Of a stretch of 20,000 bases of DNA, positions 119-20,000 are shown piece after piece; position 1 is the stretch's first letter, and every line of letters starts with the position of its first letter. The position numbers and the translations under genes were made by a program. A model generated the notes under the pieces. It made no database searches, was not told the origin of the DNA, and was given only the letters and a program-made list of their open reading frames with translations. The DNA is taken from positions 239,689 to 259,688 of the forward strand of contig JBNGIO010006327.1 in NCBI GenBank assembly GCA_049999805.1, read 5' to 3'. The stretch is from Folioceros fuciformis (taxonomy: Eukaryota).

Positions 119-1372
119 TCACAAGGAAGTTGCAGGGCCAGGGTAGCCGTGTCGAGCGGAGGATCCGCCGCTCTTGAACGGGCGCGCGCGGATCACCAGG
201 TCGTGGTAGGCTGTCGCCAAGGCAGCACCGATAAACGGCCCGACCCAAAACACCCACTGCACAGTGCACACAGGCGGATACCATCATGAGCCAACAGCAT
301 GGATCTCGTTGCTGCCCAGAAGCGAAGCCCACATGCAAACAGTTGTCAAAAACCAGCCAGCCGCATGCCAGCAGCGCCGTACTACCAATGCATTCACCGA
401 AAAAGCTCACTCACATGATCACGCCAGACTTGGTCGTGGTCCACGACGGCAGCGACTCCGAAGCTCCTGGCTGGATTGATTCCCGTCCCGGTGATCGGAA
501 GCGTGCCAAGGATCACCAGAAACACCGCGAATCCGATCGGCAAGGGCGCGAGGATCTACCGTGCAGCGCATTGGGAGCTGGTCAGAGCTGGATTCAGCGT
601 TACCCACCAATAATCAACACACCTCCATCCTGAACTCGATTCATACCGGAACGTGAGAATCACGGGCATTCCTCTTGGCGTCGGTAGCCGAGAGCACGGT
701 GTGGACGAGGACGAAGGTGCCAACGATCTCGGCTCCCAGCCCCGTCGCCTTGGTGTATCCGTGCTGCACGGTGTTGGCGGCCCCCGCGCCGTATCGGTCG
801 AAGAACGCGGACTGCCATCTCTTCACCAACCCCACCCCCGCCACGGCTCCAGAACACTGCGCCACTGCGTAAATGAAAAATCTGGGGAGCGACACCTTCC
901 TGGCCAGTAGGAAGGCGAAAGTCACTGCCGGATTGAGGTGCCCACCTGTAAGACCACAATCGCAGAACTGATGTGAGCAGTAGCAGACATATCATGCCAT
1001 CGTCACCACCCAGCACAAAGACCGACCCGAGATGCCAGCGGTGGCGTAGACGAGCACGAAGATGGCTCCCCCGAACGTCCAGGCGATGGCGCGGATCCCG
1101 GCTCCGGACCCGGGCTCGGCCTCCTCGTTGCGGAGGTGGCCGACGATGGTGTTCACGGCGAGGTAGAGGAAGATCAGTGTCGCCACGAACTCGGTGATGG
1201 CTGCCCGCCAGAGGCCCCAAGTCCCGAGCTCGGCGGTATCGAAGAGCGCCACAGGCGGCGTCTCTTTGTAGTCCTTCGGGAGTAGGAGCTGCGGGCCCGT
1301 ACCCAGAGGAACTCGCTCCTTGAATCTTGCGGCTCCTACGTTCACATCTTCGGTCGAGGCGGCGTCCGCCAT
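119..1372 (-). CDS. PIP: Plasma membrane intrinsic protein (PIP aquaporin, PIP1-like termini, divergent), 307 aa, 4 exons
   Basis: Exons 1372-1027, 945-647, 555-415 and 256-119 join in frame (924 nt) through GT-AG introns at the three canonical PIP positions ([42 protein letters not shown]). NPA boxes at 934-926 and 477-469. N-terminus [21 protein letters not shown] and C-terminus VIRARPFKS resemble PIP1. Stop TGA at 121-119. Confidence 0.96.
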
Positions 1373-7289: not shown

Positions 7290-7868
7290 ATCTCTTTTTT
7301 AATAATAGAAAATAATTATTTATTAGACAACATTGAAAAGATGAGCTCTTCGTATTCGTGATACTTGCATTGGAGTAAAGTTCGAAATGATGACCATTGG
7401 ATAGTTGTCATCAAAACAAAGTGCTAGAGGTAGATTGGATTGATCATCATTGGTATGAATCCCTAGATTATAATGTATAAATAGATAAACTTCATTTGAT
7501 TTATAATTACCTGTGAATAGATTTATCTTGAACATTTACATTTCCCTCCGCGTCTTTAGAGGTTAAATATGCCCTAGTATAATCGCCCATACAGATCTAT
7601 CTGTTGGAGCGACGGAGCTGGCGGGGGTGATGAGCGTCGAGGAGAGGAGGGAAGAAAGGGTCGAGGCGCGCAGAGAATAAGGTGGGTTACGTTATGTGTA
7701 CATATGCATGCATGCTGGTGGTACCACGCTCTTGCTCCCAAGAAGTGGAGAGGCCGGCCGGGGGTTTAATAAAGGGACATCGGCCGGGAAAGGGTTTGAG
7801 CCGGCTGTTTACGGTGTACTGCGCGCCTCAGTACCCACACTTACCGACCTAGCTGCTGATGAGCAGGA

Positions 7869-10863
7869 ATGAAAATTCGGCTCACCAGGAAAGGAGATGC
7901 GTTCGCCATATCGAAGCCAGACAGGGTGGAGGATGAGCAGGTGGAGGAGGCCGTGCACTCCTCCGCGGCAGCTGCTGGTGCGGGAACAGGGACAGGAATT
8001 GATCACGACATGGCCAACACGGAGCCTGCAGCGGCCGTGAAGGAGAGGACGCCCGAGGGCGATAACAAGAGGAGGCGCCTCTCTTCGCCGCTCCTCGACG
8101 ATGCCAACGGCAATGGGGACGCAGCCCCGGGGCTGGAACCGGAGGCCAGCAACAGAGGCAAGGACGTGCCGCACGCAATGCCCCCACCGGCGGAACCTGC
8201 CAAGGTTGCGCCCTCGCCGGACCGGGGGAAGGGAGTGCCTCATTCCGGCCCAGCTCCCATGGACCTTTCGCCTGCCAGGACCCCAGCGCCGCCCGGCCAA
8301 GCGCCCCATGAGCCCGTGGAGCCACCACCGGCGGCCACTCCTGCTGTGTTGCCCCCGCTCAAGGCTGCTGCCCCACAGGCGGAGCCGCTGAACCGAGAGT
8401 TGTATCGCATCCCCAGCTATGCAGGTGGGTTTCGCGTCCCCTATTTGGTGTAATTTGTAGCTTGGTGTGGAGCAGAGGGCGAGGGCTGAATTTCGTGGAG
8501 GGTTTCCTGTGCAGCGTGGTTTTCTTGGAACAAGATTCATAGCCTGGAGCGGAGAGCGCTGAGTATTTTCTTTGATGGCAAGTCGGCCTCCAGGACTCCT
8601 AAGATATACAAGGAGTACCGGGATTTTATTATCAACAAGTATAGGGAGAATACCCAGAGAAGGCTCACCTTCACGGAAATTAGGAGGATGCTGATTGGCG
8701 ATGTGAACACGCTGCAGAAGGTTTTTGACTTTCTGGAGCATTGGGGGCTGATCAATAACCAGGTTTCCGCTGACTCCAGAAAACCACCAGCTGTCCCCAT
8801 TGTCGTGGAACCTGGTCCAGCTAGTATGAGAATTGTACAGCCAGACGTTCGAGCGCAGGCGCTGCATCCTGGTGATGCTGGGATGGTTTCTGGGAGTCAC
8901 TCGTCCCCGAGCTTAGCCTCACACAAGGACATTCTTGGTTCTGCAGGAGCCGACAGAGCACCTCCAAAGCACTTCTGTACTGTCTGCAAAGTCGACTGCT
9001 CCAAGGATCGGTATCAACGGCAGGGGCAGGTAGCTTGAGCCTTTCGAAGTCATTCTGCACCATGGTGGTAGTTGCTTCTCCCTTGTCGGGCTGTGCGGTC
9101 TTCATGTCTGGCTGCCTGGACGGTAGATTTTTTGTTTGCCCTGCGGGCGTTGTTATTATGTGGTCTGAGGCTGGTCTCTTACTGGAGGTTGCTTGGGTGC
9201 AGGCCGGCTCTGTTATATGCCCAAGCTGCTTCAAAGCAGAAAAGTTTGGTGCTACCTTGTCAGCCAAGGAGTTCACACAGATAACAGCGGATGCAGATGG
9301 AGGGCCGGCTAAGGAAGAGTGGACTCAGCAAGAGACACTTCTCCTCCTGGAGGGTGTTATGCGCCATGGTGATAATTGGAACCGGGTTAGTGAATATGTT
9401 GGTACCAAGACGAAAGCAGAATGCGTGTCACATTTCATCCGGCTGCCCTTCGGCGATCGTATTCTGGGTGATATTGACACGTTTGGGGATGCCTTTCAAG
9501 TGAAAAGCGATAACCTTGTGAAACCTACAAGTCCAACATCAAATGCGAAGGCAAGAGAACAGAAATCTGCGAAATCAAGTGACGGCAAAGCACCCGTCCA
9601 AGAGGACCTCATTCCCACAGATAATATGTCCTCTCAACCAAAAGCAGATCTATCAGAAGATCTTGTGCATCCGCTTCTAGATGCCAGCAATCCCCTCATT
9701 GCACAGGTGAGGAATGGAGCTGCCTGCTCAGAATTCGTCATCTAAGCGTGATCGCATGTCTGCAGGATGATCTAATGGACCTGATGGGCTGTGTTTTTGC
9801 TAGGTAGCTTTCTTATGTTCTATGGTGGGACCGCGCGTAGGTGCAGCTGCAGCTCAGGCAGCAGTTGCAGCCATCACAGAAGAGGAGGCTGCAATGATAC
9901 CATTTCCTCTGCTAGCATCTCATTCATCTGATGCCCTCTCAGGCCAAGCCAATGGGAACAGGTATGGGCTGTGGTTCGCCGCATGTGCCATTTTTTGACG
10001 AGCGTGATCTCGCAGCGGCTCTCCGTCACATCTGATGGGGAACTGCCGGTATTCTTGCAGTTCCAAGGACGTAGGAGATTTGGATTTGAGACGGAAGGAG
10101 GATCTGGCAACTCAAGGTCGTAAATTCTGCCGTAAATGTCTGCTTCCGGTGTAGAAATCATGGACATGGGACTACGGAGTGAGGAGTGTCTGTGTCCCCA
10201 TATTAGATGTCAGAACACGATTTTTGTGCATTTCTTTGAAGGAGTTGCAGCTGCAGAATTCTGTGCTGAAATTAACGTCGAAGATGGATTGATTTGCAGG
10301 TTTACATGGCGACAAATCATCAGTAGATGGTCAAGACGTCACAGAAAATCCCGGGCTACCAGGCAGGTCACTTTCAGCTGTATCATATCGAGTTGGCATC
10401 ACAACTGCTCTTGCAGGAGCTGCTGCGAATGCACGACTGCTGGCAGATCAAGAAGAGAGGGAGATGGAATCCACTATATCAGACCTGATTGACACTCAGG
10501 TGCAAATTCCTATGCCTTTGTGGTGTTTTCCATCCTTTGGTTGCACAGGAGGAATTGTTGTGGGATTGAATACATCTTTGCATGCTCCAGCTGAAGAAAA
10601 TTCAGGCGAAGTTAGAACATTTCGACGAGCTGGAACTGTTGCTGGAAAAAGAGCGCACTGAGGTTGAAAGAGCCCGCACGCAAGTATACGCAGACCGAAT
10701 ACGGTTTGCTGAATTTCAGTTTGGGTCATCCCGGGTCCCCAACGGTGAGGTGAGGCCCAACGACGGTGTCCATTCCGCTAGGCCTTCACTAACTCCACCG
10801 GTGCCTCAGAGGGCTGGGATGTCCGGTTCCGCCGCCAAGTTAATTCCTACGAGGAAACTGTAG
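7869..10863 (+). CDS. SWI3: SWI/SNF complex subunit SWI3 (SWI3A/B-type; SWIRM, ZZ-like Zn finger, SANT, C-terminal coiled coil), ~753 aa, 7 exons
   Basis: Exons 7869-8424, 8515-9029, 9203-9706, 9804-9961, 10061-10116, 10300-10499 and 10591-10863 join in frame (2262 nt), all introns GT-AG. Motifs: IPSYAAWFSWNKIH..RTPKIYKEYRDFIINKYRE..RRLTFTEIR..GDV..FLEHWGLIN (SWIRM), WTQQETLLLLEG..DNWNRVSEYVGTKTKAECVSHFIRLPFGD (SANT), NPLIAQVAFL, ARLLADQEERE..QLKKIQAKLEHF. The start codon and the small exon 5 are less certain. Confidence 0.93.
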
Positions 10864-11528: not shown

Positions 11529-13094
11529 ATGGCCGCCGTCCTTCCGCTGCGTTCTGTTGGCATGGCACTCTCTGCTGGATTGGAGTCCTCCAGGAGTCTT
11601 AAATCCGGAGGGGAGGTGTGCCTGGCTGCGCCGGGGCTGGTGCATGTGCAAGCCGGGAAGGTGGCCAATGTCGGTTCTGCCAAGCAGAGGTTGAGGAGCT
11701 TTGACGGCCTCCGCGCTGGCTCCGTCGCGGCCTCAATGTTTGGGAGTGTGGAGAGTCTGCAGAGGAGGAGTGCCTGTGTGGAGGGGGATCGGGTGATTAC
11801 AACGTTCACCGTGTACGCTGGGAAGAGCAGTAAGAAGCTGGATGGGAGAAGACTGCGTGTGGCTGTTATCGGAGGCGGGCCGGGCGGGGGCTGCGCGGCT
11901 GAGACGCTGGCCAAGAACGGGATTGAGACGTTTCTCATCGAGCGGAAGTTGGACAATGCCAAGCCCTGTGGAGGTGCCATTCCGCTATGCATGGTGGGAG
12001 AATTCGATCTGCCGCCTGAAATCATCGACCGCAAGGTGACCAAGATGAAGATGATCTCGCCTTCAAATGTGGCTGTGGACATCGGAAAGACTCTGAATGA
12101 AAACGAGTATATCGGCATGGTGCGGCGAGAGGTGTTAGACTCCTATCTCAGAGACCGGGCGGCCAAACACGGTGCTAATGTGATCAACGGTTTGTTCCTG
12201 AGGATGGAGTTGCCGAAGGATGACATCAGCCCTTACAGGCTGTATTACTCCAAGTACGACGGAATAGCTGGAAAGCAGGGTGAGCCTTGTGTCCTCGAGG
12301 TCGATGCTGTCATCGGTGCTGATGGTGCGAACAGTCGTGTGGCCAAGGAAATTGATGCCGGTGAGTATGACTACGCTATTGCCTTTCAAGAGAGGATTAA
12401 GATTCCTGATGATAAGATGGAGTACTATGAGAACCTGGCTGAGATGTACGTGGGAGACGATGTGTCACCCGACTTTTACGGCTGGGTGTTCCCGAAGTGT
12501 GATCACGTTGCCGTTGGCACTGGCACTGTCGTCAACAAGCCTGCCATCAAGAAGTATCAGACGGCTACGCGTTACAGGGCGAGGGACAAGATCGCCGGGG
12601 GGAAGATCATCCGAGTCGAGGCACATCCTATTCCTGAGCACCCTAGGCCACGCCGTGTGAGAGGGCGGGTTGCTCTCATTGGAGATGCTGCTGGGTATGT
12701 GACTAAATGCTCTGGTGAGGGCATCTACTTTGCTGCCAAGTCTGGCCGCATGTGCGCTGAGGCAATAGTGGTAGGCTCTGGGAGCGGCGAAAGGTTGATC
12801 AATGAGGCGGACCTGCGAGTCTACCTTGACAAGTGGGACAGGACTTATTGGCCAACGTACAAGGTTTTGGATATTCTTCAGAAGGTGTTCTACAGGTCCA
12901 ACCCCGCGAGGGAGGCTTTCGTCGAAATGTGTGCAGATGACTATGTGCAGAAGATGACCTTCGACAGTTACCTGTACAAGACCGTCGTTCCCGGGAACCC
13001 CATCGATGACATCAAGCTGGCATTCAACACCATTGCCAGTCTCGTGAGAGCGAATGCACTGAGGAAAACGGCGAAGTTGCCAGTTATTAGGTGA
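11529..13094 (+). CDS. CHLP: Geranylgeranyl diphosphate reductase, chloroplastic (521 aa, no CDS intron)
   Basis: Single ORF with RLRVAVIGGGPGGGCAAETLA (FAD-binding), ERKLDNAKPCGGAIPLCMVGEFDLP, EMYVGDDVSPDFYGWVFPKCDH and GDAAGYVTKCSGEGIYFAAKSGR. A ~100-aa Ser/Ala/Arg-rich transit-peptide-like region precedes the domain. Confidence 0.98.
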   Translation: MAAVLPLRSVGMALSAGLESSRSLKSGGEVCLAAPGLVHVQAGKVANVGSAKQRLRSFDGLRAGSVAASMFGSVESLQRRSACVEGDRVITTFTVYAGKSSKKLDGRRLRVAVIGGGPGGGCAAETLAKNGIETFLIERKLDNAKPCGGAIPLCMVGEFDLPPEIIDRKVTKMKMISPSNVAVDIGKTLNENEYIGMVRREVLDSYLRDRAAKHGANVINGLFLRMELPKDDISPYRLYYSKYDGIAGKQGEPCVLEVDAVIGADGANSRVAKEIDAGEYDYAIAFQERIKIPDDKMEYYENLAEMYVGDDVSPDFYGWVFPKCDHVAVGTGTVVNKPAIKKYQTATRYRARDKIAGGKIIRVEAHPIPEHPRPRRVRGRVALIGDAAGYVTKCSGEGIYFAAKSGRMCAEAIVVGSGSGERLINEADLRVYLDKWDRTYWPTYKVLDILQKVFYRSNPAREAFVEMCADDYVQKMTFDSYLYKTVVPGNPIDDIKLAFNTIASLVRANALRKTAKLPVIR

Positions 13095-14310: not shown

Positions 14311-15033
14311 TCAGTTCTCCCTGTGCAGAAAGCCACTCCACAAACTGGCAGCCTCCTCGCGTGTTCTAGCATTAGTGACAACTGTCACGTTAACCCCCCG
14401 AATCTGGTCAAACATCTCAATATGGTTAAGGATCTCCGGGAACAAGCGCAGCAATTGCGAGCCCACCCTCAGTTGGACACAGTGACTCTGTATGTTAGAA
14501 GAGTAGTCGTGAAAGGACGTGACCGACACAAGCTTCTCCAGAAAATTGTACATCAGATCCCCCCGCAAGGTGGTGCGAGCCACAGGGATAACCTTCCTCG
14601 GATTCCGCTTCGGCTCATACTTGCTCCGCCGAACTTTCAATGCAGGATCCTTGCTCTTGATAGGCAGGAACTTCTGGCCGCACACCACTTCCAAAGCCAC
14701 TCGGGCAGCCTTCTCCGAATCCAGAGGAGCCCTGGGCACCACCACCACTGCCGTCACCCGGGGCACCTCCATGACGTTATTGTAGTCGAATTTCGCCAGC
14801 AGGTCATTCCTCAGCACATTTTCATAGTGGAACCGCAATCTGTTCGGAGGAAAAAGGGCAACTTCTGGTGCAACAGTCCCGGCTGCAGGGACCGTCTCAG
14901 AGGCGCTAGCAAACCCCCTGATCGCCCAAGATTTCCGCCACGGCAGTCTGCCAGACACAAGTACCCTGCTCCCTAGATCCACCAGATACCGCCCCATCCT
15001 CGATGCAACCCAGCCGCATCGCGCAGACGACAT
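14311..15033 (-). CDS. RPL5: Nuclear-encoded mitochondrial ribosomal protein L5 (uL5m) with N-terminal presequence, 240 aa, no CDS intron
   Basis: RLRFHYENVLRNDLLAKFDYNNVMEVP..ALEVVCGQK..TLRGDLMYNFLEKL..LLRLFPEILNHIEMFDQIRGVNVTVVTNA..LWSGFL matches land-plant mitochondrial rpl5. First ATG at 15033 (the ORF-track start at 15042 is TTG; a second ATG is at 14997). The Arg/Ser-rich leader has an RGF|AS R-3-type cleavage motif. Confidence 0.93.
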   Translation of the reverse strand: MSSARCGWVASRMGRYLVDLGSRVLVSGRLPWRKSWAIRGFASASETVPAAGTVAPEVALFPPNRLRFHYENVLRNDLLAKFDYNNVMEVPRVTAVVVVPRAPLDSEKAARVALEVVCGQKFLPIKSKDPALKVRRSKYEPKRNPRKVIPVARTTLRGDLMYNFLEKLVSVTSFHDYSSNIQSHCVQLRVGSQLLRLFPEILNHIEMFDQIRGVNVTVVTNARTREEAASLWSGFLHREN

Positions 15034-15703: not shown

Positions 15704-18700
15704 ATGGCTCAGTTAGTGCGTGAGAAAGCTCTTAGGGAGATGCGTGCCGTGATAGGGCCTGATGCCTCGGAGAAGCATATGCTCCATTCCCTCTACTTAG
15801 CAAGGGACGATGTGTTGTCGGCTATTAACATATACTTCGATACTCCGCAAGGAGAAGCTATTGCTAGACCAGTCCCTGTGGTCAAGAGGCCTCCACTCGC
15901 ACCAGCACCGGTACCGGTACCGAGAGCACACGCAGCTAGCCAAAAACGGAACTTGCAAGTTCCGCCTGAAGTGAGTGTCATCAGGGGATCCCAGGTGGGG
16001 GCCCCTCCTGTAGTCAGGGCTGTGCAAGCTAGAGGGCAAGTTCCTTCGCGGCCTGTTCAGGTGGTGGCTCCAGTCAGCATGCCTGAGGTGGTGGGTGCTG
16101 AGGTTGTGGCTCCCGCCAGCAGGCCTGAGGTGGTGGATGCTGACATTGTGTATCCAGTCAGCAGGCCTGAGGTGGAGGGTGCTGAGGTTGTGGCTCCCGT
16201 CAGCAGGCCTGAGGTGGAGGGTGCTGAGGTTGTGGCTCCAGTCAGCAGTCCTGAGATGGAGGGTGCTGAGGTTGTGGCTCCAATCAGCCGGCCTGATGTT
16301 TCTTTGTCTCCTCGATTGTCAGAGGACAAAGTGCCTTCCTCACAACAGCAATCGGAGGATGTTCAGCTTATGGGGAAGCAGGTGATTACAGGTGTTACCG
16401 ATGTTCCCGCTCAAATCTCACGAAAGGTGATTCCCAATTTGGCTAAAAGCATACTGCGGATTGATCTGGAATCAAGACCCGTGGGATCCCAACCATTGGA
16501 AAAAGTGCCAAGTGCGTGGTTGTTGCTTGGCCAAACTGAGGTAGCTGGGATTTCAACATGTAGAGGAATAAGAGTAAAGAGAGGAGATCCTATAATCTTT
16601 ACGTACCCAAAGAAGCCGAATGCCTCCAGTGACGGAAAACGTCCTTTGGGCAGACCAAAGGAATCTGCAGGGGCTGGAATCGTACGTTTTGAATCCCCCA
16701 TTCATGGAGAGGTCAGTCTAAAATCTTGGACCAGATATGAACTTGTGAGAATGAGTGCTATGTAGACCTTGCTCACGTGATACTCTGTTGCAGGTTGGTC
16801 GTCTTCCTAGGGATTGGGCAGCCTGTGTCATTCCCTTGGTCCATCAGAATAGAGTCAAGCTCGTAGGAAGGTGCAGGAGTGCTCCTGTTTTACTGAACAT
16901 TATGTCCACTATCTATATTGATATCCGGTAAATTTTATGGCTGTAATCTTAACATTAGCCGCAAGTACATTTCGAACTGTCCTCTCTTTTCATTTGTTGT
17001 GCTTTTCCTGCAGAGTGTACATAAATCGCAACTTTTTTTCAAAGTTTGACAGTTTGTGGAGGAGTCTCACTTCTGTCAACACTGAAGCAACAACAAACCT
17101 CCCTCTGCCATCCCTTCTGTCATTTCTTGGGCGTAAACCGTCTCAGAAGGTGGGTGTTTAAGTTTGCTGGATTTGACTTGTGTTTTGTATCTGAGAGGCA
17201 TATGACAGTCTCAAAGCTCTTGTTCCTGTTTGGTAGGCAGAATTCACACCACAGGATTTGCTCTCTCGAAAGCGCTCCCTAGAGTCTGATAAGCAAATTC
17301 TTCAGGTATTTCTTTTGGCCTGTCTCAATGCACGTCATTATCTGCATATGGGCGTTTGGCGCTCCCACCACAACGACATGGATGTGTCATGAACAGGGAA
17401 GTAGCTCATTTACTGCAGAAAAACGGCGTAAGCTCGCAACAGGTGTTCCTACAAGTGAAGGTGGAGTCGAAGAGATTTCAGATAATGAAATCAGTGATCT
17501 TGTTGGTGCAACTGATAACTCGGAAATGCAGGTGCTGTTTCCAATGCAAGATAGTTTGTTATACGCACTGCTGCCAGGCAATGTAGCTCTTCAACACGTT
17601 AGGTCGTTGCCCATTAATAAGCTGCATACATATCTGATCGGGCTTGTTAGCAGGAGATGGAGCCCTCCAATGCCATGCTTTGCTCTCTATGGCCCTACCA
17701 GAAACAGGCACTCTGGTGGATGACCAGCAGAGAAACTGGAGCCGCTTCTGAGCAGGCTGCGGAGACATTACATCCTTGTTGGGAATCCTATTCTTTGGCT
17801 GAGACGTAGACTCCTTTTCCTTACTGTCTGAAACTAAGATCTTGATACTTCAGATATTGTCACATAGTGAGAACGGATATTCAAGGTTTAGTGGTTGTCT
17901 GCAGGGAAGTGTCTGTATTCTATCTCAATGTCTTCACAGGAGAGGCAACTCTGGACTTCCCCAGTGCAAAACAAACAGCCAAAGGAGGGGTAAATGCCAT
18001 TTTATTTGCTCAGCTCATCTGCAGCCTTCACACGGACACAGGAACCTGTTGTAGCACAGCCATCTTACATCATTCGTTGTTGTTCAACAGATTCTTGCAG
18101 ATGCTATGGGTTTGGGGAAAACTGTGATGACCATCTCTCTGATAGTTACCAATCCTGGACGAGGTGGCCTGAATGATGAAGGTTACTCGAAGGAGCTTGA
18201 TGATCCTGGAGAACGCGTTCAACCAAACACAGCAACGACCTCAGGACAGAGAACCGAGAAGGGTGGGGGTACTTTGATTGTATGTCCCATGTCCCTGCTT
18301 GCGCAGTGGAAGGCAAGTCCATAACGCCAAACTGGGTACATTTGCTGTCTGTTAGCAATTTAACACACTCGTTGACTAGTTTTGTGAATTTGATTTTGGG
18401 CAGCATGAGTTCGAAACACATGTCACTCCTGGTCATTTGAAAGTGTATACACATTATGGTGGTGAACGAAGAAGAGTGCTGAAGGACCTTCTGGAGTATG
18501 ACATTGTGTTAACCACATACAGCACCCTACAGTCAGAGCATTCGGTACATTCTTGGAACCTTGGATATGAAGTTCAGTGCCATTGTCCATCAGGTGTCGA
18601 GACCTCCCTGTAATCTTGATACCTTCGAGTTTTTGACAGAGATCTCCTGACGGAAGCCCTATCCAATCTGTGCACTGGTTCCGTGTGGTTCTAGATGAAG

Positions 18701-20000
18701 CGCATTCCATAAAGAATAGTAACTCTTCATGTGCACAAGCCATATTTTCTCTGACTGCAGATCGCTCTTGGTGCCTTACTGGGACACCTATTCAGGTTCG
18801 GTTTCTAGTTTGCGCAAGCTTTAGCGTTTCTGTTTTTTATGGTGATCAGTTACTCATTAGTCAGTATCCGTTGCCTCCTTTGAGCAGAACAAATTGGAGG
18901 ATGTTTTCAGTCTTTTGCATTTTCTCCGTGTTGAGCCTTGGACCAATTGGGCATGGTAAAGTAGACACGTATATCCTATTTTGTTTTCTGTCAAAGCTGC
19001 GCACGTAGATGTCTTCGGTTTTTTTTATGCTGATTCAATGTCCCACCTGAAACAGGTGGAACAGACTCATTCAAAAGCCATTCGAGGAGGGTGATGAGCG
19101 AGCTTTAGCTCTCCTGCAGCACGTCTTAAGGCCTCTTATGCTTCGGAGAACTAAGGACACCAAAGACAAAGACGGAAGGTTAGTGTTCTTCAGGATGGGC
19201 ACTGTTTGAAGTTTCCCGGCTCTTCATCTAACGGCAAGTCTTCTTGTATCCCAGGCCAATCCTCGAGTTACCTCCTGCTGACATGCAGCTCGTCTACTGT
19301 GACCTGTCAGAAGCAGAGAGGGATTTTTATGACGCTGTACATAATAAATCGAAGGTCAGCATGACTACGGATGTCTTCCCTCTGTGGTGTTGTGGCCAGG
19401 TGCCTAAGTTGGCAAGCTGTTCGTGCAGATAAAATTTGACCAATTCGTGGAGCAAGGAAAGGTGCTTCACAATTATGCTTCAATTCTGGAGCTTTTGCTC
19501 CGAATGCGACAATGTTGTGATCATCCATTTCTTGTCATGAGGTACTCGTCTGTGTGCTTTTACGGTGTTTGGCTGTGTCAATGCTTGACGTTGGACACCA
19601 TGGTTTCTATCGCGGATTTTAATGGTGTGAACTTGCCTCACAGTCGCAGTGACACTGACGAGTTCGCGGATCTGGACAAATTGGCCAAACGTTTCTTAGA
19701 TGGAGATGGTGACTTGGCATTCAAGACAGGAGCTTCACGGTCTACCAAGCCTACCAAGGCATTTGTGGAGGAGGTGGTCGCAGATCTTCGGAAGGGCGAG
19801 AAAAGCGAGTGCCCAATTTGTCTAGAGGCCATGGAAGACGCGGTGCTCACTCCATGTGCACATCGCATGTGTCGTGAGTGCTTGTTTGCGTCGTGGCGCA
19901 GCACTGGGTCTGGGAAATGTCCGATTTGCAGGTAGGATATTTGTTACCATTGGACATATTTGTTACCATTGTTCCGTGCTGGCAATATCTGGGCAGCGGC
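15704..20000 (+). CDS. RAD5: DNA repair protein RAD5 (UBA-like N-terminus, HIRAN, SNF2 ATPase, RING); partial, continues beyond the window
   Basis: Exons 15704-16711, 16794-16927, 17014-17149, 17237-17305, 17397-17531, 17654-17805, 17905-17989, 18091-18312, 18404-18544, 18640-18795, 18888-18955, 19056-19178, 19255-19354, 19429-19541 and 19644-19931 join in frame. Motifs: AINIYFDTP, HIRAN (GISTCRG..IVRF..GEVGRLP), PYQKQALWWM, GGILADAMGLGKT, TLIVCPMSLLAQW, RVVLDEAH, WCLTGTPIQN, LRMRQCCDHPFLV, C3HC4 RING CPICLE..PCAHRMCREC..CPICR. Confidence 0.96.
16061..16299 (+). repeat. Coding minisatellite in RAD5 exon 1: 42-bp unit, ~5.7 copies (VVAPVSRPEVEGAE)
   Basis: Units start at 16061, 16103, 16145, 16187, 16229 and 16271 (partial). 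Consensus gttgtggctccagtcagcaggcctgaggtggagggtgctgag, in frame. Confidence 0.95.

Follow-up and report, generated by a model that had tools for sequence, protein, structure and literature searches.

The selectivity filter of PIP aquaporins is given as Phe-His-Thr-Arg in the available text of studies on birch (PMC8304918), eelgrass (PMC5541012), grasses (PMC4915720) and moss (PMC2386804). According to the accessible part of PMC4814140, replacement of the helix-5 His of human AQP1 by Ile (H180I) lowered the background-corrected water rate from 33.2 to 0.32 (about 100-fold) and raised that of ammonia from 0 to 4.8. The ammonia rate of TIP2;1 was 32.4, of which H180I reached about 15%; the mutant did not rescue ammonium-uptake-deficient yeast and was classed as ammonia-specific. 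The same study describes the filter as five positions including one in loop C, and four substitutions were needed for TIP-like behaviour in AQP1, the His of helix 2, the His of loop C and the Gly of loop E of TIP2;1 all being required for the graft (PMC4814140). Water flow returned to AQP1 with Ile only once the loop-E residue was Gly, and AtTIP2;1 carries Ile185 at helix 5 yet conducts water (PMC4814140).

Other replacements at this site are reported in the available portions of three further papers. Exchange of the His for Ala or Gly left water flow unaltered in rat AQP1, where H180A also let ammonia pass (PMC3621907, second-hand), and in human AQP4 (PMC6937295); simulations of AtPIP2;1, also cited second-hand from PMC3621907, did not support a filter-driven ammonia conductance. 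Urea and glycerol were blocked in human AQP1 H180A and H180G and both passed AQP4 H201A and H201G (PMC6937295), so that the outcome of one filter change depends on the scaffold and proxies from other families are weak. A TIP-like filter gave AtPIP2;1 urea permeability only in combination with the correct residue at position 55, which lies outside the filter (second-hand, PMC3153687). Ser-to-Ile at the helix-5 site of OsLsi1 abolished silicon, boron and water transport (PMC3153687). Given the tightness of these AtPIP2;1 and human AQP1 variants, a gain of urea or glycerol passage from Ile alone is unlikely.

The locus described here lies in a stretch of 20,000 nt (the window) from a plant which the preliminary description had treated as a hornwort only conditionally, and which homologues, trees and an Anthoceros angustus ortholog place there. 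An aquaporin gene of four exons occupies 1372-119 of the minus strand, with an open frame of 307 aa, GT-AG introns (Table 1) and NPA boxes at residues 120 and 242. All 3 exon translations scanned matched PF00230 (MIP) above the cut-off. The position of intron 1 equals that of a read-through intron in homologue P0124 and that of intron 3 the end of an A. angustus gene model; PIP genes as a family typically have three introns at set positions. Relative to the two hornwort sister PIP1s that carry His, the C-tail in exon 4 is extended by about 16 aa. Ahead of the start codon, two upstream ORFs were seen on the minus strand, one at 1450-1424 (8 aa), within the coverage of the spliced contig, and one at 1508-1467 (13 aa), found by eye.

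A contig of 1384 nt from run X3, a separate sample and study, is joined precisely across all three introns, with 0 differing letters in its four pieces; this run is taken as RNA by guess and by the spliced contig itself, no matching run being recorded as RNA. A DNA contig from run X1, which may be the source of the window, covers 60-846, again with 0 differing letters. The intact frame, splice sites and NPA boxes claimed earlier were thus all recovered. The helix-5 codon ATC is two changes from CAC and three from CAT, with intermediates coding for Asn or Leu. As the same letters occur in contigs from two studies, the codon is not a base error, which agrees with the preliminary description; the spliced contig also reads ATC, and a second species has Ile. 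RNA editing that restores His was ruled out, the spliced contig being equal to the DNA.

Table 1. Coordinates of the aquaporin gene, its pore residues and the neighbouring genes in the window
Feature	Position	Strand	Basis
Exon 1 (Met1-Ser115): PIP1-type N-terminus, helix 1, loop A, helix 2	1027..1372	-	frame, Pfam MIP, spliced contig
Intron 1, 81 nt, GT-AG	946..1026	-	junction in spliced contig
Exon 2: first NPA, helix 3, loop C, helix 4, loop D	647..945	-	frame, Pfam MIP, spliced contig
Intron 2, 91 nt, GT-AG	556..646	-	junction in spliced contig
Exon 3: helix 5 with Ile230, loop E, second NPA, Arg245	415..555	-	frame, alignment, spliced contig
Intron 3, 158 nt, GT-AG	257..414	-	junction in spliced contig
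Exon 4: helix 6 and C-tail; stop at 121-119	119..256	-	frame, spliced contig
Ala72, probable equivalent of AtPIP2;1 position 55, possible second site	1157..1159	-	mapping inferred
Phe100 (TTC), helix-2 filter site, PIP state	1073..1075	-	translation, alignment
Asn173, loop-C site of extended filter, PIP/AQP1 state, not TIP2 His	773..775	-	Asn in 197/198 PIPs
Ile230 (ATC), helix-5 filter site, His in canonical PIPs	511..513	-	translation, alignment, 198-PIP count
Thr239 (ACG), loop-E filter site, PIP state	484..486	-	Thr in 198/198 PIPs
Arg245 (AGG), filter arginine	466..468	-	Arg in 198/198 PIPs
SWIRM/Myb (SWI3-like) gene	7863-10661	+	Pfam
Geranylgeranyl reductase, intronless	11529-13094	+	Pfam
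Mitochondrial uL5m, nuclear, intronless, N-terminal extension like a targeting peptide	14314-15030	-	sequence, Pfam
RAD5A-like SNF2/RING gene, short tandem repeat in N-terminal part	15704-19935	+	Pfam

For comparison, 198 full-length PIPs were chosen from 264 proteins by length and motif filters. Ile230 aligned without gaps to His210 of spinach SoPIP2;1 and to the helix-5 His of bat AQP1, and the five filter positions (Phe100-Asn173-Ile230-Thr239-Arg245) form the set of a water channel with one swap. The four-letter filter F-I-T-R and its codons are therefore as first described, and Ile at helix 5 is indeed the TIP state, as in Ile185 of AtTIP2;1 (available text of PMC4814140). Phe68, Ile104, Asn173, Ile222, Val226, Thr239 and Arg245 are all in the PIP state of the 198-protein alignment. 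Asp34, Glu37, Ser134, His213 and Leu217, that is the acidic pair, the loop-B Ser and the His/Leu gate of loop D, are present, and we take them to be gating sites with the roles that they have in SoPIP2;1.

Two deviations outside the four-letter filter concern possible second sites. The Ala72 site corresponds to residues 54 and 55 in two Brassicaceae PIP2s and is Thr in 166, Ser in 22 and Ala in 3 of the 198 PIPs, with Thr in both His sisters; three TIP-class proteins of A. angustus have Gly there (by eye), and Ala, Ser or Gly is found in some His-type PIPs too. In loop C, one residue is inserted directly before Asn173, also in the A. angustus ortholog. Residue 88 (window ~1110, minus strand) is Gly, versus the loop-A Cys in 195/198 PIPs; both hornwort sisters also have this Gly, which makes it a trait of hornwort PIP1s and not private to the gene.

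The gene fails the Phe-His-Thr-Arg hallmark of a canonical water-selective PIP through Ile230. It shares helix-5 Ile and the filter Arg with the aqua-ammoniaporin AtTIP2;1, which differs in its His of helix 2, His of loop C and Gly of loop E, where the gene has Phe, Asn and Thr; TIP2-type channels in general have His or an aromatic residue in loop C and Gly or Ala in loop E. With 1 of 4 TIP2;1-specific filter residues (the Ile), a TIP-type ammonia channel was ruled out by sequence. The HIP class, given as His-His-Ala-Arg in the available text of PMC2386804, was ruled out by Phe100 and Ile230 in place of His at helices 2 and 5. Three proteins of A. angustus labelled as TIPs (Table S2 of PMC12578469, rows 31, 35 and 40) are His-His-Ala-Arg and HIP-like by eye. 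If the protein acts like anything tested, its closest functional match would be engineered AQP1 H180I, which has the extended filter Phe-Asn-Ile-x-Arg, the same swap and a water-specific scaffold. AQP1 H180I differs in having Cys and not Thr at loop E, in an animal scaffold without PIP gating, and in being a laboratory mutant without co-evolved second sites.

At the helix-5 site, the 198 PIPs have His (188), Asn (8), Val (2) or Ile (0); the eight Asn belong to one pine cluster, which itself has 9 members. Beyond pine, Asn was found in Rubroshorea/Shorea, Val in Striga and Escallonia, and Ser in a PIP-like protein of Spirogloea. These proteins largely keep the rest of the filter and are unlike the hornwort gene in having Asn, Val or Ser and not Ile. 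In the tree the seed-plant PIP2s with Val or Asn have origins separate from that of the hornwort gene and no long branch, and they are otherwise normal, with 0-3 deviations at conserved columns. The literature search found no functional study of a PIP with Asn, Val or Ser at this site.

In the accessible part of the supplement to a 104-genome survey (PMC12578469), the His motif occurs at least 1,137 times and four Ile motifs at least 2 times, the latter being those of the Anthoceros ortholog and of a tea fragment of 121 aa whose NPA is damaged. Among its A. angustus PIP and TIP rows, the PIP1 ortholog is the one protein with helix-5 Ile (by eye). The available text of the survey gives helix 5 as conserved His in PIPs and passes over this Ile without remark. 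Homologue searches and 50%-cluster representatives returned, among the matches listed, neither an Ile PIP-like protein nor any relative of full length that exceeded about 70% identity. Two scans of metagenome contigs with degenerate patterns for Ile, Val or Met at the site gave 0 matches and, having had no His control, are uninformative; runs X5 and X6, from other organisms, gave no ortholog at 85% likeness, which is no proof of absence. The databases searched under-sample hornworts, since the ortholog was found only in the supplement of a paper. Judged from these alignments, the helix-5 His is almost invariant, with some exceptions, and intact PIPs with Ile are very rare; the near-invariance of F-H-T-R first asserted holds for His, while other residues are rare and not unique to this gene. 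In a search that reached few subscription journals, no paper on an Ile-filter or His-less PIP or on hornwort aquaporin function was found among those listed. The ortholog's sequence is already public, and the Ile-filter PIP is undescribed in the literature reached.

Trees of PIPs alone placed the gene, on a long branch, inside the starred hornwort clade on the PIP1 side (support 100/97 and 99/94), and by descent it is, on this phylogenetic evidence, a PIP1. Its end branch is 0.73 versus 0.15 for the Nothoceros sister, about five times longer. The tree test did not uphold the Nothoceros copy as its sister in preference to the canonical PIP1 of Anthoceros type (p-AU 0.18). The nearest named relative among the matches listed is a Nothoceros aenigmaticus PIP1 (P0125) with 69-70% identity. 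The canonical hornwort PIP1s (P0125 and AANG011304 of A. angustus) have about 70% identity to the gene, the same starred clade, both NPAs and the Phe, Asn, Thr and Arg of the filter; N-terminal and loop-A signatures shared with them occur in only 3 other compared proteins. They differ in having His at helix 5, Thr at the Ala72 site and short branches, and in lacking the loop-C insertion and the C-tail extension.

The visible part of Table S2 of PMC12578469 lists three PIPs of A. angustus: a His PIP2, a His PIP1 and an Ile PIP1, AANG011004 (labelled PIP1;2). AANG011004 is the ortholog, with 140 of 146 residues of exons 2-3 identical and 14 of 51 residues of the N-terminal tail different (both by eye); 65 visible core codons hold 9 synonymous and 3 non-synonymous differences (by eye). 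The source plant is therefore probably an Anthoceros-type hornwort different from A. angustus. The comparison that had been proposed to look for an Ile clade gave Ile in this ortholog; the Nothoceros copy and the other A. angustus PIP1 have His. AANG011004 has Ala in place of Gly232; the neighbouring change of LAT to LGT, which had been noted beside the Ile, does not accompany it there. In loop A the AANG011004 model loses the frame (26 nt versus 33 in the window, by eye), and it lacks helix 2 and exon 4; either the lesion is real or a GC-rich stretch was wrongly assembled or annotated, and the copy may be broken.

Contigs of a PIP2-type paralog in run X1 overlie 644-745 and 1025-1063 of the window; their listed differences give the PIP2 form of the loop-D motif and restore canonical Tyr and Phe. 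In run X3 the contig depth of this paralog is 3294 versus 243 for the gene (about 13 times), although depth reflects expression poorly.

With the two His sisters as reference, 47 private changes were counted in the gene versus 17 in the Nothoceros copy (p = 2e-4). Invariant columns were changed at 8 of 123 positions, compared with 25 +/- 3 expected in 600 neutral simulations, none of which gave 8 or fewer; this excludes full neutrality, not partial relaxation. The 8 changes score 0 to 2 in BLOSUM, and His-to-Ile, at -3, is the most radical at a conserved column. GC3 is 0.78 versus 0.51-0.54 in the introns. An intact frame alone is weak evidence, since 9% of neutral simulations were free of stops. 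By these counts the gene is under purifying selection. By eye, AANG011004 has 7 of the 8 invariant-column changes or their like, among them Thr60, Leu119, Ala126, Ala171, His197 and Leu234, and has Ala72 as well. Most of the changes are common to this ortholog, and the pattern is that of an old burst of change followed by conservation, as would be expected of a duplicate with a new role. By arithmetic, a change at one of five filter sites has about a 1-in-4 chance at 6.5% per invariant site.

By analogy with the tested channels, we consider it reasonably probable that the gene encodes a PIP1 which has taken on a new function, conducting water poorly and leaking neutral solutes to a modest degree, most likely ammonia. 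A hornwort PIP1 duplicate would have passed through the burst of change and then been conserved in the Anthoceros lineage. Loss of the polar His at the outer constriction, with Phe, Asn, Thr and Arg kept, would make the filter slightly wider and greasier; water would lose one hydrogen-bond partner and flow poorly, and small uncharged solutes would pass modestly. Ammonia comes first among the candidates, with about half of the weight of this explanation, followed by H2O2 or CO2, with urea and glycerol last. Ala72 and the loop-C insertion may be second sites which tune or rescue the pore. PIP1s operate in mixed tetramers with PIP2s, and by analogy with other PIP1s the protein would probably join the PIP2 found in the same runs, bulk water transport being left to the canonical His-PIP1 and PIP2. 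The retuning for NH3, urea, H2O2 or CO2 proposed earlier is plausible, since the gene is intact, spliced and under purifying selection and the Ile is common to the ortholog, with urea unlikely from this change alone. The analogy to AQP1 first drawn holds for some gain of ammonia; the matching swap is His-to-Ile, which chiefly abolishes water flow and gives weak ammonia transport. The low ammonia rate of H180I (about 15% of TIP2;1), its failure in yeast, the four substitutions required for TIP-like behaviour, the scaffold dependence seen between AQP1 and AQP4, the unsupportive AtPIP2;1 simulations, the possibly broken A. angustus copy, the 1-in-4 chance of a filter change, the Ile of the tea fragment and the small residues at the Ala72 site of some His-type PIPs all weaken the explanation.

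It is also possible, at a clearly lower probability, that the pore is closed or idle, the protein having been retained for a structural or regulatory part in PIP tetramers, or to let gas through by a path outside the monomer pore, with Ile tolerated or selected only to shut off water and no new substrate gained. Many PIP1s on their own are weak water channels, and the presumed gating sites Asp34, Glu37, Ser134, His213 and Leu217 are kept, both of which suit such a role. So do the loss of water flow as the main effect of H180I (PMC4814140) and the abolished transport of OsLsi1 with Ile at this site, each as given in the available text. An idle pore would not need the other checked filter and pore residues, which are all in the PIP state, and Ile is the residue that TIPs use for widening the filter (available text of PMC4814140).

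That the protein is still an ordinary water channel, in which second-site changes compensate and Ile matters little, is unlikely. It would agree with water conduction by AtTIP2;1 with Ile at the site (PMC4814140, in part), with the unchanged water flow of rat AQP1 and human AQP4 after His-to-Ala/Gly in the available reports, and with the persistence of Asn and Val variants in otherwise normal PIP2s. AQP1 with Ile, however, regained water only with Gly at loop E, where the hornwort gene has Thr, and His is kept in 188 of the 198 PIPs.

A decaying duplicate, whose Ile would have hitch-hiked as a lesion while the copy was losing its function, is very improbable. The long branch, the apparent frameshift of the A. 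angustus model, the degenerate tea fragment with the same Ile and the contig depth of 243 against 3294 for the paralog (poor as this measure is) point that way. Against it, the changes avoid invariant columns and are conservative, GC3 (0.78) stays above the introns (0.51-0.54), splicing is exact, and the core shares 96% of its residues with the ortholog, most of the codon differences being synonymous (by eye). That the codon is an artefact of sequencing or assembly, for which no supporting point was found, is effectively refuted by the identical contigs of two studies and by the Ile of another species.

The neighbours of the aquaporin in the 20,000-nt window (Table 1) are ordinary, no nitrogen or symbiosis gene was seen among them, and an exact look-up of two neighbouring proteins gave no identical match. 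Hornwort mitochondria have lost many ribosomal protein genes, and the nuclear uL5m gene fits a transfer from the mitochondrion. In the window and the literature reached, nothing was found that would connect the aquaporin with nitrogen transfer from cyanobacteria or with the concentration of carbon; the available main text of an Anthoceros-Nostoc RNA-seq preprint has 0 occurrences of 'aquaporin' and 0 of 'intrinsic' and points to AMT transporters. A bolder and improbable version of the favoured explanation is that in Anthoceros hornworts a PIP1 has been rebuilt as a gated plasma-membrane channel that prefers ammonia over water, with co-evolved second sites (Ala72 and the loop-C insertion) overcoming the low flux known from AQP1 H180I, serving nitrogen at the Nostoc cavity or ammonia in chloroplast-rich cells.

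The helix-5 His is treated as a hallmark of water-selective PIPs, and the gene is a natural, selected counterpart of a swap that was found tested only by engineering. A comparison of the protein with a His revertant and with the His paralogs of the same plant would test directly whether the filter alone sets selectivity. A knock-out would be readable, because the number of PIPs in hornworts is small (three in A. angustus) and transformation protocols are published. Ammonia passage at the symbiotic cavity, if true, would fill a gap in the route of fixed nitrogen to the host, which is speculation. A preference for ammonia over water, if true, would make this a natural aquaporin of that kind with an origin independent of TIPs, AQP8 and nodulin 26.
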